From contig CAVPCQ010000006.1 of the NCBI GenBank assembly GCA_963702425.1, positions 1 through 64,000 on the forward strand: a stretch of 64,000 nt of DNA, read 5' to 3'. Position numbers and translations under genes: made by a program. Position 1 is the stretch's first letter. Every line of letters begins with the position of its first letter. The stretch comes from an uncultured Acidobacteriota bacterium (GTDB lineage Bacteria; Acidobacteriota; Polarisedimenticolia; J045). Below are positions 49,795 through 57,095 of this stretch, piece after piece. The notes beneath the pieces were generated by a model. It was not told the DNA's origin. It did no database searches and saw only the letters and a program-made list of their open reading frames with translations.

Positions 49795-51334
49795 GTGGGT
49801 GCGGTCTTGCGCGAGGTCGAAGTGCGGGTGCTGGAGGCCCTTCCGCCGGACGGCGGGGCGCTCGGGGTCGAGGATCTGGCGCGCCGCCTGGGGCTCGACC
49901 AGAGTCCGGTGGCGGGCGCGGTCGCGACGCTCGCCGAGCGCGGCCTGGTGACCGTTTCGGAGGAGTCCGAGGACGAGTACCGGGTCGGCGCCGAAGGCGG
50001 CGGGCTGGGAGCGGTTGTGTCTTTCCGGAGCGGCGGGTCGCGCGGGCCCTCGCGGTGGCCGGCGGAGAGGCCGAGATCCCGACCCTCGCTGCGGCCTCGG
50101 GGTTGTCGACGAAGGAGATCGGCGAGTCGCTGCGCTGGTTGACCCAGCGCGGCTGGGCCGCGAAGGACGGCGCACGGCTGCGTGCGACGGAGGCCTGGGC
50201 GGGCGCCGAGCCGGCGGCCGAGCCCGACGAGCGCCTGCTGCAGTTCCTCGTCGATCACGGACCGGCGCGCCGGGCTGCGGTGCTCGACGCCGGCGAGGCG
50301 CTCGATGCCGCGCTCGAGCGCCTGGCCGCGCGCGCCGGGGTCGTCGAGCGCCGCGAGCGGCGCCGGCGGCTGGTCGCGATGACCGTTGAGGGCGCGGCGC
50401 TCCGGGCGGGAGGGGTCGAGTCCCGCCGCGAGGTCAACGAGCTGACCACCGAGCTGCTGGTGTCGGGACGCTGGCGCGAGGTCGCGTTCCGCGCCTACGA
50501 CATCGGCCTGCCCGGCCCGGAGGTGGTGCCGGGCAAGGAGCACCCGTTTCCGGCGGATCCTCCACGAAACGCGGCGGGTCTTCCTCGAGATGGGTTTCGA
50601 GGAGACGAAGAGCCCGTGGGTGGAGTCGGCCTTCTGGGACTTCGACGCGCTGTTCCAGCCGCAGGACCACCCGGCGCGCGACATGCAGGACACCTTCTAC
50701 GTCGCGCGACCGGAGCGGGCGACGCTGCCCGATCCGGCGCTGGTCGAGCGCGTGCGCCGCACCCACGAGGACGGCGGCGACACCGGCTCGATCGGCTGGC
50801 GAACGCGGTGGGACCCGGCCCTGGCCGAGCGCTGCGTGCTGCGGACCCACACCACCGCCGCGACGGTGCGCGCGCTCTACGCCGACCCGCGGCCCGCCGC
50901 GGCGCGTCTTCTCGGTCGGCCCGGTCTTCCGGCGCGAGACGATCGACTACAAGCACCTGCCGGTCTTCCACCAGGTCGACGGGATCGTGATCGACGCCAA
51001 CGCGTCGTTTGCGATGCTGCTGACGCTCCTGACGACCTTCTACCGGAAGATGGGCTTCCCGCGGATCCAGTTCCGGCCCGCCTTCTTCCCCTACACCGAG
51101 CCGTCGGTCGAGGTCTTCGTCTACCTCGAGTCGCGCCAGGACTGGGTCGAGATGGGCGGGGCAGGGATCTTCCGGCCCGAGGTCACCGAGCCGCTCGGCT
51201 GCACCGCGCCGGTGCTGGCCTGGGGCCTCGGCCTCGAGCGGGTGGCGATGTTCCGCTTCGGCCTGTCGGACATCCGCGAGATCTACCTCGCCCACCTCGA
51301 GTGGCTCGAGGAGACGCCGCTGTGCCGATCCTAG
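49795..51334 (+). CDS. pheS: Phenylalanine--tRNA ligase alpha subunit, archaeal/eukaryotic type (apparent frameshifts near 50010, 50545, 50895)
   Basis: Long N-terminal winged-helix-like region, FPER, FWDFDALFQPQDHPARDMQDTFY, LRTHTT, VFRRETIDYKHLPVFHQVDG, FFPYTEPS, WGLGLER. Confidence 0.93.
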
Positions 51335-53143
51335 GGATCCCGCTCGACGAGCTCTTCGCGCGCTACGGCGCGACCATCGAGCCCGCCGAGCTCGAGCACG
51401 AGCTGCACCGCTTCGGCTGCTCGGTCGAGGGCTGGGCGACTGCCTATCGCTGGCGCTGCCCGTCATGCGGCACGCTCTCGGAAGGGGGCGAGGACGCCGC
51501 GCCGCCGCCGGCCTGCGAGGGTTGCGGGGTCGAACTGCGCTCCGCGGCAACGCTCGGCGTGCCGGCAGGCGAAGTCCGGGTGCTGCGGATGGAACTGCTC
51601 GCCGTGCGGCCCGACCTGTTCGGCCCGGAGGGGCTGGCGCGCGGGCTGCGGGGCTTCCTGCGCCGCGAGTCGGGTGCGCCGCGCTACCGCCTCGAGCCCG
51701 GGAGCTTCACGGTCGACGTGGATCCCGCGCTGGCCGGGCCGGGCGTGCACCGCCCGCGGATCGTCGCCGCGATCGTGCGCGGGCTGACGCTCGACGACGC
51801 GCGGCTGCGCGGCCTGATGAAGCTGCAGGAGAACGTCCACTGGGCGCTGGGCCGCGACCGCAAGCTGGCCTCGATCGGCGTCTACGACCTGGCGACCGTC
51901 GCCGGTCCCGCGCTCTCGTACCGCGCGGTCGAGCTGGACGGCGTGCGCTTCGTGCCGCTGGGCTTCGATCCGGCGCAGCCGCACGCCGCGCTGACGCCGC
52001 GCGAGATCCTGCAGAAGCACCCCAAGGGGACCGCCTACGCCTGGCTGCTGGAAGGGAACACCAGGGCCCCGCTGCTGGCCGACGCGAAGGGGAGCGTGCT
52101 GTCGATGCCGCCGATCATCAACAGTGAGGCGACGCGCGTCACCACCGCGACGAAGGACGTCGTGATCGACGTCACGGGTCTGGCCGACCGCCACATCGAC
52201 AAGGCGCTGGCGATGGTCGTGACCAGCCTGCTCGAGGCCTGCCCCGGGGCGCACGCCGAGACGGTCACGGTCCGGTACGCGGACGGGGCGCGCGTCACGC
52301 CCGACCTCGCGCCGCACGAGGTCGTCCTCGATCCCGTCGCCGCCGGCCGGTTGATCGGCGTGGCGTGGACCGCCGAGGACGTCGCCGAGCTGCTGCGCTT
52401 CATGCGCCACGACGCGACGGTGGTCGACGGCCAGGTGCATCGTCCAGGTCCCGGCGTGGCGCTCGGACATCCTGCATCCACGCGACCTGGTCGAGGACGC
52501 GGCGATCGCTCACGGCTACGACCGGATCCCCGCGGTCGGCCTGGCGGCGGCGACGATCGGACTGCCCGAGCAACGGGAAGAGGACGCCGCGCGGGCGCGC
52601 GAGGCACTCGCCGGGATGGGTTTCCTCGAGGTCATGACGCTCGCGCTGACCTCGGAGGAGGCGACCTACCGCAAGACCGGACTGCCCGACGACGACCGCC
52701 AGGTCACGATCGAGAACCCGATCTCGATCGAGCAGACGATGGTCCGGATCTCGGTCGTGCCGGGACTGCTGGAGACGCTGGCGATCAACCTCGGCCACCC
52801 GTATCCGCAGCGGATCTTCGAGGTCGGCCTCGTCGTGCACGCCGACGCGTCGCGCGAGACCGGCGCCGCGGAGACGATGGTCGCCGGCTGCGCGCTGGCG
52901 GGCGACGGATTCGGCTATGCCGACGCGCGCTCCGCGGTCGACGCGCTGCTGCGCGAGACCGGGCGCGACGGCGGCGGGACCAGCTTCCGCGCGCTCGACT
53001 GGCCGCTCTTCATCCCGGGCCGCGGGGCCGAGATCCTCGACGGGGCGGGGGAGCGAATCGGGGTCGTGGGCGAGGTCCACCCCGAGGTGCTGACCCGCTA
53101 CCGGATGATCCACCCGGTCGCGCTCGCCGAGATCACACTCTAA
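51322..53143 (+). CDS. pheT: Phenylalanine--tRNA ligase beta subunit, archaeal/eukaryotic type (apparent frameshift near 52440)
   Basis: RPDL, QENVH..LGRDRKLASIGVYDL, LSMPPIINS, RSDILHPRDLVED.AIAHGY, GEVHPEVL; about 600 aa, no B2 or B8 domain. Confidence 0.92.
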
Positions 53144-54281
53144 GCGCGGCGCGCACCGCGTAGACCAGCAGCCGGGCCTCGACGCCGCTGACCGTCAACG
53201 GGATCCGGCGCTCGGCCTTGAACCCGAGGTGCCGGGTGATCGCGGCGTTTCCGGACAGCGCGGCCAGCGTCCAGCCCGCCAGCCGTTGACGCGCCAGCGT
53301 TCCGAGTCCGCGCCACGCGCCGGCGGCCTCGTCGGCGAGCCGCAGCCCCCACGGCGGGTTGGTCAGGACGAGGCCCGGCCCATCCGGCGGCTCGACCGTC
53401 TCGATCTCGGCGCACTCGAGCTCGACGTGGCGCCCGAGTCCCTGGCGCGCGAGCGCGGCGCGCGCCTCGGCCAGCGCGCGCGGGTTGCGATCCGAGGCGA
53501 GGAACGGGGCGTGCAGCGGAATCCGTTCGGGGCGCAACTCCTGGGCGATCGCCTCGAGCGGGAGGCCCGCGAACGGGAGCAGGGTCGAGACGGCCAGCGA
53601 ATCCGGCGTTCGCTGCGGCGGGATCCCGAGCGCAAGCGCCGCCGCTTCGGCGACCAGGGTTCCCGTTCCGCAGAACGGGTCGAGCAGCGGGCGCTCGGGA
53701 TCGACGCCCGCCAGCAGGGCGATCCCCGCCGCGACGTCTTCCCGCAGCGGAGCGATCCCCTGGCGGCCGGTCCCCCGCGCGTGGAGGCTGTGACCGCCGA
53801 GGTCGATCCCGGCCGACGCCGCGCCGCGCTCGAGCCGGAAATCGACCAGGATCCGCGCCCCGCGCGGGTCGACGGGAGGGCACGCGAGGCCCCGCGCGGC
53901 GAAGCGGTCGCGGACCGAGTCCTTGACCAGCCGCGCGGTGTGGAGCGGTGAGCGCAACTCCTCCGTGGTGCCGGTGACGCGGACGGCCCAGCCGACCTCG
54001 CGCGGCAGCCACTCCTCCCAAGCGATCCGGGTCAACTCGGGCTGAAACCCCTCGGCCTCCTCGGGGAGCCCCGTCGCGAGTTCCAGGATCACGCGCGGCG
54101 CCGAGCGCAGCCCGAGCGTCAGCCGCGCCCCCAGCAGCAGGTCGCCCGGCACGCGCACGGCGCCTCGGGCCGCGGACAGCGGCTCGGGGCCGCCGAGACG
54201 GCGCACCTCGTCCGCCACCGCCGGCTCGAGGCCGGCGGTCACGGCGAGGCGGAAGACGAGAGGGGCCGCCGTAAAGCTCAG
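53133..54281 (-). CDS. THUMP-domain SAM-dependent RNA methyltransferase (RlmL/YpsC-like); start uncertain (CTG 54281 or GTG 54242)
   Basis: [47 protein letters not shown]. Confidence 0.88.
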
Positions 54282-54631
54282 GCGAGCGCGGCGCGCGCCT
54301 TGTCGACGAGCTGCGTGAAGGTCTGCGGCTGCTGCAGCGCCAGGTCGGCCAGAACGCGCCGATCGAGCTCGATGCCGGCCCTCTTCAACCCGTCGATGAA
54401 GCGGCTGTAGGAGATCCCGTTGGCGCGCGAGGCGGCGCCGATGCGGGTGATCCACAGCGCGCGGAAGTGGCGCTTCTTCTGCTTGCGCCCGGCGTAGGCG
54501 AAGAGCAGGGAGCGATCGACCTGCAGCTTCGCGATCCGGTAGCAGTTGTGCTTCGAGAGGTAGTAGCCCTTGGCCCGGGCCAGGATCTTGCGCCGGCGGT
54601 CGCGCCGGTTGGTACCCCGTTTCACGCGCAT
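54278..54631 (-). CDS. rplT: 50S ribosomal protein L20
   Basis: MRVKRG, AKGY, R.LWITRI.AA, SYSRFI.GLK, DR.VLADLA. Confidence 0.97.
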
Positions 54632-54943: not shown

Positions 54944-56884
<1,941 letters not shown>

Positions 56885-57020
56885 CCTACCGCTCCCTTGC
56901 TCCGTCTTCCGCGTGGCGCAACGGCCGCGCGAACGGCGCCGCGGCCGCCCGGTTCGGCCCAGCCCGCGGCTGCGTCCCCGGTCTTCCGATGGGGAAGGCC
57001 CGTCCACCGGGCCCCGGGAC

Positions 57021-57095
57021 TGGTAGGCGCGGGCGGTTTCGAACCGCCGACCTCTACCGTGTCAAGGTAGCGCTCTCCCACTGAGCTACGCGCCT
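57021..57095 (-). tRNA. tRNA-Val(GAC)
   Basis: AGGCGCGTAGCTCAGTGGGAGAGCGCTACCTTGACACGGTAGAGGTCGGCGGTTCGAAACCGCCCGCGCCTACCA folds as a cloverleaf with anticodon GAC and encoded CCA. Confidence 0.97.

Follow-up and report, generated by a model that had tools for sequence, protein, structure and literature searches.

A predicted Cys4 zinc ribbon in domain B1 of PheT as a probable hallmark of a bacterial branch of archaeal-type PheRS

The beta subunit of phenylalanyl-tRNA synthetase (PheRS) encoded in the window, which is the whole 64,000-nucleotide stretch of DNA analyzed, carries a Cys4 zinc-ribbon-like insert in its domain B1. Our main reading, with a probability of about 0.6, is that this insert is a hallmark of a bacterial branch of archaeal-type PheRS and has an accessory role, and its identity as a conserved, clade-marking Cys4 zinc ribbon is very probable. 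PheRS is a classic example of transfer between the domains of life, known mainly from spirochaetes, and the sequences collected here reveal a distinct and far larger bacterial branch of archaeal-type PheRS beyond the spirochaetes, which is apparently undescribed. The ribbon provides a simple sequence marker for this branch, and it bears on PheRS as an antibacterial target, the bacteria of the ribbon branch carrying a eukaryote-like enzyme.

The archaeal/eukaryal-type alpha subunit gene, pheS (49795..51334, forward strand, about 513 codons), has Pfam tRNA-synt_2d matches on two C-terminal pieces (5e-24 and 3e-52) and winged-helix HTH matches at 49795-49992, the N-terminus of alpha. The beta subunit gene, pheT (51322..53143, forward strand), has a GTG start at 51322 that overlaps the pheS stop at 51332-34 and encodes B1, B3/4, B5, and a catalytic-like module, with Pfam B3_4 and PhetRS_B1 on its first piece and B5 and tRNA_synthFbeta on its second, while B2 (tRNA_bind, PF01588) and B8 are absent from the window's PheT in the same scan. 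The core of the B3/4 (editing) domain lies at 51874..52203 (forward strand; Pfam B3_4 on residues 185-294), where N267, D283, T285, and G286 (D283-x-T285-G286), which we take from work on P. horikoshii to be editing-site residues, are invariant or nearly so in 89 aligned sequences. The C-terminal part, comprising the end of B5 and the catalytic-like module, is read at 52403..53140 (forward strand) in the frame that follows the insertion near 52440 (tRNA_synthFbeta, 4e-40; B5, 3e-9). An intact orthologue (P0008) scores 450.1 bits against TIGR00471, pheT_arch (cut-off, 282.65), and the window's 363-residue PheT piece, being partial, falls short of this cut-off with 230.3 bits. By score, domain set, fold, and the adjacent long alpha subunit, the window's PheT is an archaeal/eukaryal-type beta subunit. 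It shares with the archaeal and eukaryal cytosolic beta subunits (TIGR00471; 2CXI, a P. horikoshii fragment; 3L4G, human; 8S8B; and 7BY6, P. vivax) the domain order, the fold (TM, 0.79), and the lack of B2 and B8, and its partner alpha subunit likewise has winged-helix matches at the N-terminus, but those proteins are without the Cys4 insert of about 46 residues at the tip of the B1 hairpin, and the hosts of the window's branch are bacteria.

In the three-frame translation, TGC codons of frame 1 at 51457-59, 51466-68, 51514-16, and 51523-25 encode C46, C49, C65, and C68 of PheT, which form the motif C46-x2-C49-x15-C65-x2-C68 within ...AYRWRCPSCGTLSEGGEDAAPPPACEGCGVELRS..., in frame on both flanks, with the first PheT helices upstream and ...MELLAVRPDLF downstream. 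The first-pass annotation had proposed an added zinc-ribbon module in the N-terminal domain of PheT, inserted in frame on both sides ahead of the RPDL motif, and the reading frame, the conservation, and the AF2 model all agree with this and place the module in domain B1 (51322..51681 with the insert, forward strand, about residues 1-120), as delimited by AF2 elements and a match to PF18262, PhetRS_B1 (residues 84-114 on profile positions 52-82). The 69 bases from 51457 to 51525 to which it had confined the module are correct for the Cys4 core (C46-P-S-C49 ... C65-E-G-C68, forward strand, defined by translation and by conservation in homologues) but do not cover the whole insert, which, relative to canonical short archaeal-type PheT, spans 51436..51573 (forward strand, about residues 39-84) and comprises an acidic linker and the zinc ribbon as well as the outer halves of the beta-hairpin, which is lengthened here. 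The RPD motif lies at about residue 96 in the window's PheT versus about residue 50 in the short forms, which gives the whole insert its length of about 46 residues; in a profile search the short forms match profile positions 84-137 with their own residues 39-93 or so, and the N-terminus of P0112 was also compared for placing the borders.

The AF2 model, computed from 89 aligned sequences, has a mean pLDDT of 96 and a pTM of 0.93, and, for the fold of the N-terminal half, its best Foldseek match is 2cxi_A (E, 2.9e-30; TM, 0.79/0.83; rmsd, 2.7), followed by 8s8b_C and 3l4g_B (E, 3e-24). Its B1 elements are strand 3-7, helices 8-15 and 21-31, strands 34-45 and 80-91, and helix 102-112, and in this model, which is without metal, the ribbon forms the tip of a lengthened B1 beta-hairpin whose strands 34-45 and 80-91 flank it, with a pLDDT of 92-95 over residues 41-80. 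The insert has a ribbon-like secondary structure and shows the features of a Cys4 zinc ribbon, two CxxC knuckles with a short beta-hairpin spacer between them that are conserved in homologues, and the four cysteines are predicted to bind zinc. Searched by itself against Pfam at E values up to 10, the insert gave only subthreshold zinc-ribbon matches, no curated zinc-ribbon model reaching its cut-off (DUF7130, 18.1 bits versus 35; Zn_ribbon_8, 16.9 versus 34.4); such scores are usual for short knuckles and weaken only the claim that the insert belongs to a named family.

The hairpin turn that carries the ribbon is also the site of B2 in the bacterial-type enzyme. When a B2-less bacterial PheT is aligned with that of E. 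coli, residues 1-37 align with residues 1-37 and residue 40 onward aligns with residue 154 onward, which places B2 between the ...V-D-x-V-E strand and the ...N-R-x-D strand, and the available part of PMC12494982 terms the bacterial unit 'B1-B2-B1'. The AF2 model and this alignment together show that the ribbon and the B2 OB-fold share one site, although B2 (EMAP-II-like; Pfam tRNA_bind) is an OB-fold of about 116 residues, basic and RNA binding by its family description, whereas the ribbon is an unrelated, acidic fold of about 25 residues. The turn is empty in the short archaeal and the B2-less bacterial forms, and in one archaeal-clade protein (P0160) it holds a stretch of about 135 residues with several CxxC pairs. 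Holding an OB-fold, one ribbon, or several CxxC pairs in different lineages, the B1 hairpin tip has received insertions repeatedly and offers a natural experiment on the effect of accessory modules at this position on tRNA handling and editing. B2 is missing from many CPR bacteria, according to the available part of PMC5370408. The sister families of the window's family, in the same class, have bacterial PheT without any B2, so that the turn may need nothing. The role of B2 is reportedly the subject of a 2006 study by Roy and Ibba.

All four cysteines are invariant across the window's family (23 of 23 N-termini, from 12 genera), in which the residues between them vary; they are also present in all 40 word-index matches. 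The ribbon type is widespread in bacteria, and the four cysteines are kept in 75 of 80 related loci from species genomes, whose labels name a dozen or more different bacterial groups. Among 172 collected full-length sequences, 131 have the four cysteines, with a spacer of 15 residues in 119, and the consensus around them is R-[FYW]-[RK]-C-x2-C-G-x-[LIV]-x-E-x9-P-x2-C-x2-C-G-x-[DE]-[LF]-R. At overall identities of 35-45%, the E (92%), P (76%), G (76%), and R (79%) of this consensus are strongly kept, and the ribbon is flanked by arginine before C1 (R, 79%; R/K, 79%) and by R/K after C4 (about 60%). Within the motif, public metagenome contigs depart from the window sequence solely at third codon positions (51465, 51477, 51513, and 51522), and by codon reading these differences are synonymous. 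The mean net charge is -2.3 for the ribbon (over the 131 sequences) and -1.9 for the linker behind it, and in this acidity the ribbon and linker are unlike typical RNA-binding ribbons. One sequence (L086) is without the insert, yet it is nested with support 97 among insert-bearing WOR-3 sequences, and three others (L050, L081, and P0092) have kept the insert and lost cysteine pairs; these losses favor dispensability.

The ribbon type carries the labels of Acidobacteriota, Planctomycetota, Myxococcota, Eisenbacteria, Eremiobacterota/Vulcanimicrobiota, WOR-3, Gemmatimonadota, Fermentibacteria, KSB1, Nitrospinota, and others, and a Spirochaetota single-cell genome (L052) has it as well. All insert-bearing loci with a taxon label are labelled bacteria, at least 563 matching stretches occur in species-representative genomes, and the beta subunits of the branch, of about 600-630 aa, span many phyla; the insert is not peculiar to this organism. 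A weak match in G171 (E, 6.7e-4), confined to profile positions 30-72, was left out of the counts as an unrelated zinc ribbon. The insert was not seen in any of the 29 canonical short archaeal-type PheT proteins (531-590 aa) of the profile search or in any of 119 archaeal-clade relatives of P0160. No counterpart of it was found in the solved archaeal, eukaryal, and Plasmodium beta subunits, whose alignments begin only after it, at about residue 82-95, and the curated NCBIfam pheT_arch model likewise aligns only from residue 79, after the ribbon, which matters for annotation; the earlier statement that such a module is unseen in characterized archaeal and eukaryotic beta subunits is thereby supported. 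The proposal that it marks a distinct PheRS subfamily is likewise supported, since in trees built without the insert columns (FastTree and IQ-TREE quick) a branch with support 99 separates the 29 short forms, together with P0160, from the insert-bearing sequences. These trees are unrooted, with the short forms sampled by N-terminal similarity, and without a root they do not tell whether the bacterial branch gained the insert or the short-form clade lost it. A pheS-pheT read-through ORF (P0041) and a frameshifted sequence (P0003) were excluded from the trees, and P0120 (543 aa, with repeated CxxC units that alone produce its profile match) was excluded from both the PheT counts and the trees.

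In the window's family, the archaeal-type PheRS is present in 22 of 22 genomes and the bacterial type, recognized by FDX-ACB, in none of them, FDX-ACB being absent from the window's own genome as well, whereas the 12 sister families of the same class have the archaeal type in 0 of 18 genomes and the bacterial type in 18 of 18 (one of them, G034, unpublished). In the window's family, the ribbon-bearing branch has taken the place of the bacterial-type enzyme. In spirochaetes (Borrelia, Treponema, and Spirochaeta), too, an archaeal-type alpha/beta pair has replaced the bacterial PheRS, but, going by the available part of Andam and Gogarten 2011 (PMC3191353), it is a separate transfer that groups with Thermococcales, and its beta subunit of 514-573 aa leaves no room for the insert, so that this archaeal-type PheRS works in bacteria without room for a ribbon.

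In the proposed mechanism, the insertion lengthens the B1 beta-hairpin and the Cys4 zinc ribbon caps its end, so that a rigid finger would stand out from B1 next to the B3/4 editing domain, with zinc stapling the small exposed module. The module may tune the hold on the acceptor arm of tRNA-Phe, or on a neighboring protein surface, near the editing domain, by analogy with the B2 OB-fold at the same turn in bacterial-type PheT, and it would take no part in catalysis or anticodon recognition. An accessory, nonessential role of this kind, either structural or in tRNA handling, has roughly even odds. Zinc knuckles are inserted in other aminoacyl-tRNA synthetases and in ribosomal proteins as small Cys4 modules of surface loops, and some forms there have lost the cysteines and kept the segment, as here. 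We know of no zinc knuckle described at the B1 hairpin of PheRS beta. The literature, whose subscription papers and supplements might mention one, yielded no account of a zinc ribbon in this subunit, nor did the available parts of PMC3191353, PMC11580382, PMC3275996, PMC8464048, PMC5370408, PMC12494982, PMC4427996, and PMC3151239.

The insert may instead be neutral and purely structural, a self-folding zinc knuckle at a tolerant turn that was fixed once and spread horizontally without a role, and this is possible but the less probable reading. The different modules, or nothing, found at the B1 turn across lineages are consistent with it, as are the loss of the insert in L086 and of cysteines in three further sequences, but the constraint on E, P, G, and R and on the 15-residue spacer, the confinement of within-population variation in the motif to third codon positions, and the retention of the module in nearly all related loci argue against it.

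It is somewhat less likely still that the ribbon is a tRNA-binding module, needed for an archaeal-type PheRS without B2 and B8 to recognize bacterial tRNA-Phe, and direct contact of the ribbon with tRNA is judged equally doubtful. All taxon-labelled insert-bearing loci are bacterial, the turn is the one that carries the RNA-binding B2 in bacterial PheT, and conserved arginines flank the ribbon. The tRNA-Phe of the window's family is also a usual bacterial one, since all 18 genes read carry T at position 20 and A73 in the numbering adopted here, so that the archaeal-type enzyme works on a bacterial tRNA. However, the ribbon is net acidic and occasionally lost, which disfavors an essential RNA-binding role, and the spirochaete beta subunits manage without room for it. 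Between the window's family and its sister families, tRNA-Phe shows no consistent difference, and its D- and anticodon-arm sequence in a genome with the bacterial-type PheRS (G033) is identical to that of the window's family. One sequence, L125, fitted the tRNA-Phe pattern at a place where ARAGORN called no tRNA gene; ARAGORN with lowered thresholds or introns made tens of thousands of false calls, which were discarded. The first-pass suggestion that the ribbon stands in place of the missing B2 and B8 is helped for B2 by topology, the site being B2's own hairpin turn, and is not supported for B8, as the alpha N-terminus matches winged-helix models, in line with the DNA-binding-fold domains that, in the available part of PMC3275996, occupy this end of archaeal-type alpha and substitute for the absent anticodon-binding domain B8. 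A stronger version, in which the ribbon is a convergent substitute for B2 that hands the acceptor end of bacterial-type tRNA-Phe between the active and editing sites and so enabled the spread of one lineage, is improbable; if true, the ribbon would have let a single archaeal-type PheRS lineage spread horizontally through at least a dozen bacterial taxa, displacing the native enzyme repeatedly.

A redox or zinc-sensing switch, in which oxidation of the four cysteines or loss of zinc would alter the editing domain and tune fidelity under stress, is very unlikely: the available part of PMC8599791 reports that bacterial PheRS editing responds to oxidation, and position, beside B3/4, is all that speaks for the switch here, while lineages without the cysteines still keep the insert. 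That the Cys4 motif is an artefact, arising by chance or from frameshifted, decaying pheS-pheT genes, is refuted, since, although five single-base insertions lie in these genes, more densely than in the rest of the window, the motif falls in an unbroken 363-codon stretch and is conserved across genomes far beyond this one.

The five insertions themselves are most likely assembly errors. pheS is read in four frames, with single-base insertions near 49993, 50017, 50547, and 50893, and one near 52440 shifts the frame of pheT; about 6 of the 17 isolated single-base insertions relative to a congener (G004) fall in 2.7 of 62 kb. The public-run contigs cover the stretch in pieces, with the listed joints and gaps coming from other organisms at 90% likeness, and the holes were not used. 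Because both genes are frameshifted in the assembly, function in this very genome depends on the frameshifts being errors, and this is the favored interpretation because congeners and some public contigs are without the extra bases: all five are absent from three congeners, and each is missing from one or more of the public-run contigs that cross the site, though other contigs crossing there do not show the omission and that at 52440 rests on a single contig of depth 3.3. A pseudogene reading of pheS and pheT was rejected on the same grounds and because in the 91%-complete genome this pheS is the sole PF01409 locus and there is no other B5 locus.

The window (G+C, 72.5%) carries a phenylalanine-tRNA synthetase (PheRS) gene pair of the archaeal/eukaryal type, delimited by three-frame translation and Pfam: pheS, for the alpha subunit, at about 49795-51334 and, directly after it, pheT, for the beta subunit, from a GTG start at 51322, overlapping the pheS stop by 13 bases, to 53143. 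The first-pass annotation had described a CPSC-x15-CEGC motif in PheT, and its sequence, frame, and place all proved correct against the window sequence and its translation, with the Cys4 core (C-P-S-C, 15 residues, and C-E-G-C) at PheT residues 46 to 68, exactly 51457-51525. No second pheS or B5 locus was found in the window's own genome, which is 91% complete. The rplT (54278-54631), thrS (54944-57007), and tRNA-Val(GAC) (57021-57095) genes lie on the opposite (-) strand. The usual arrangement is thrS-infC-rpmI-rplT-pheST, all co-oriented, and the transferred pheST pair thus lies outside it. An RlmL/RMKL-like RNA methyltransferase ORF (53136-54455, - strand; Pfam UPF0020, 8e-26; RlmL_1st, 4e-9) is convergent to pheT, and its true start is probably further in than the given one, which overlaps rplT.

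In this assembly, three-frame translation spreads pheS over four frames and pheT over two, and DNA alignment with three congeners revealed five single-base insertions, at about 49993, 50017, 50547, 50893, and 52440, that all three lack. Both genes are in one frame in most relatives, and two other few-contig assemblies (genomes G003 and G004) are broken elsewhere. Each extra base is absent from at least one public-run contig spanning its site, for example a 301-base contig of metagenome run X1, which has 2 further differences, and contigs from runs X2 and X4. Not every contig over these sites omits the base, and for 52440 the omission is represented by one contig at a depth of 3.3. Compared with G004, isolated single-base insertions are found throughout the window and are denser in the pheS-pheT region. 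The five insertions are most likely assembly errors.

The same PheT was found in 22/22 other genomes (12 genera) of the window's own acidobacterial family, f1. [quoted passage not shown] The first-pass annotation had named loss of the cysteines in close homologs as evidence against its zinc ribbon, and no such loss appeared in the family: the four Cys are invariant in all 23 f1 N-termini, including the window's, with variable residues between them (L025 and L028, fragments that lack the N-terminus, are outside this count). A word-index search with residues 1 to 130 returned 40 proteins, including Eisenbacteria members at 46% identity, with the motif in 40/40. At 35 to 45% overall identity, positions beyond the cysteines are also kept (Glu at C1+8, 92%; Arg at C1-3, 79%; Pro at C3-3, 76%; Gly after C4, 76%), the spacer is fixed at 15 residues, and motif variation within public contigs is confined to third codon positions, all of which was counted for a real role of the insert. 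The Cys4 motif is conserved beyond chance.

A profile of the first 140 PheT residues, searched against 1.84 billion representatives, gave 298 matches at an E value of ≤0.001, 150 of them listed. Among the matches listed, 62 proteins have at least 500 amino acids, and 31 of these contain CxxC...CxxC within their N-terminal 130 residues, including P0120, which is no PheT, and P0160, a special case from an archaeal clade. The other 31 comprise 29 canonical archaeal-type forms (507 to 590 amino acids) with the downstream RPD motif near residue 50, where the pattern matched, P0092, which has the insert without cysteines, and P0041, a read-through ORF. Insert-bearing proteins span the whole profile, whereas these short forms, of which Methanopyrus kandleri PheT is one, align only profile positions ~84 to 137 with their own residues ~39 to 93; the insert, absent from all 29, is therefore about 46 residues long in the window type, not 23.

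Names of cluster members include Gemmatimonadota, Planctomycetota, and Deltaproteobacteria MAGs. A scan of GTDB with one genome per species, for which 30 diverse members were aligned as the query, gave at least 563 confirmed stretches, so that the distribution search proposed in the first-pass annotation revealed a widespread insert. Labels in the best 80 of these at least 563 loci include Planctomycetota (with the cultured Planctomicrobium sp. SH664), Myxococcota, Eisenbacteria, Eremiobacterota/Vulcanimicrobiota, WOR-3, Fermentibacteria, KSB1, Nitrospinota, Chitinivibrionales, Gemmatimonadota, Acidobacteriota, and one Spirochaetota single-cell genome, and none is archaeal. The four Cys are present in 75 of these 80 loci; in L058 and L076 the first knuckle is C-x-C instead of C-x2-C, L050 and L081 retain the inserted segment, with the second Cys lost from both pairs, and L086 lacks the entire insert. 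The distribution in Acidobacteriota is patchy, with 7 good matches in 301 sampled genomes: the window's genome, 4/4 others of its family, and two other families.

The solved beta subunits (human 3L4G, 8S8B, P. horikoshii 2CXI, and Plasmodium 7BY6 and 7DPI) match an intact ortholog only downstream of a start at residue ~72-95, and the match of the NCBIfam archaeal model begins at residue 79. Cys4 before RPD was found in 0/119 relatives of P0160, some of which are named Bathyarchaeia, Hadesarchaea, and Baldrarchaeia. Classical spirochete archaeal-type beta subunits, according to one study (PMC3191353), have 514 to 573 amino acids and group with Thermococcales; unlike the window branch, they have no room for the insert and so represent a separate transfer. 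As far as sampled, the insert thus appears to be absent from archaeal, eukaryal, and classical spirochete forms; the first-pass annotation had named its common presence in archaeal or spirochete PheT as refuting evidence. Trees were built from 89 sequences, thinned to <62% identity plus ten kept deliberately, using only columns after the RPD motif, so that the insert itself was left out. FastTree and IQ-TREE (quick) concur in separating the 29 short forms and P0160 from all remaining insert-bearing sequences by one branch (support, 99), in agreement with the distinct PheRS subfamily suggested earlier. L086 is nested in insert-bearing WOR-3 sequences (support, 97) and reads as a secondary loss. 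The simplest reading of these unrooted trees, with short forms chosen by N-terminal similarity, would be that the bacterial branch gained the insert once.

An AlphaFold2 model of residues 1 to 363, based on 89 aligned sequences, has a mean pLDDT of 96 (residues 41 to 80, 92 to 95) and a pTM of 0.93, and its best Foldseek match, 2cxi_A (E value, 3e-30; TM, 0.79/0.83), confirms the family. Long strands at 34 to 45 and 80 to 91 enclose short strands about the two knuckles, and the insert is predicted to be a lengthened B1 beta-hairpin with the ribbon as its cap; in short archaeal forms (P0112), a few residues link the two B1 strands instead. The bacterial-type PheTs of two sister-family genomes, G030 (L110, 119-2176, - strand) and G039 (L109, 137-2485, - strand), have about 685 amino acids, lack the B2 OB-fold, and align with Escherichia coli PheT from 1-37 to 1-37 and from 40 onward to 154 onward. 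This places the ~116-residue E. coli B2 between the ...V-D-x-V-E and ...N-R-x-D strands, the same hairpin turn as the ribbon, in a unit called "B1-B2-B1" in PMC12494982. P0160 (691 amino acids; JGI record), whose nearest relatives are named Bathyarchaeia, Hadesarchaea, and Baldrarchaeia and which has a precomputed Pfam PF08271 match, carries some 135 additional residues, several CxxC pairs among them, at this B1 turn, in what looks like an independent event. The tip of the B1 hairpin is thus a recurrent insertion site.

A tRNA-Phe pattern match was found in 19/22 family genomes, and ARAGORN confirmed tRNA-Phe(GAA) in 18; all 18 f1 genes read have anticodon GAA, T20, and A73 (our own numbering), with no consistent difference between f1 and the sister families. 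In the window's own genome (42 contigs), ARAGORN at default (62 tRNAs), the Rfam tRNA model (46 matches), and a custom anticodon-loop scan found no tRNA-Phe, leaving Phe the sole amino acid without a tRNA gene; given the family matches, this gene is probably unassembled. The alpha subunit N-terminus matches winged-helix models, and archaeal-type enzymes, according to PMC3275996, have DNA-binding-fold domains there that replace the missing B8. We favor a putative zinc-stapled accessory finger, dispensable and located next to the editing domain, because both ribbon and linker are acidic (mean charge, -2.3 and -1.9), a few lineages have lost the insert or its cysteines, sister families have no module at the same site, the alpha N-terminus matches winged-helix models, and the host tRNA-Phe is ordinary. 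A minority reading gives the ribbon a B2-like role in tRNA handling; going by the title of a 2006 paper by Roy and Ibba, B2 is said to be dispensable and to contribute to editing. An essential or simple RNA-binding role is opposed by every point that favors the accessory finger. No description of a ribbon in PheRS beta was found in the literature searches and the open-access main-text passages covered. The insert is a good evolutionary marker of the insert-bearing branch of archaeal-type PheRS, and its functional role is testable.

Separately, an in-frame deletion of 51 bases (17 codons), opposite window positions 51883-51933, affects the B3/4 region of pheT in the congener G001 (locus L008) when compared with the window, G002, and G004.
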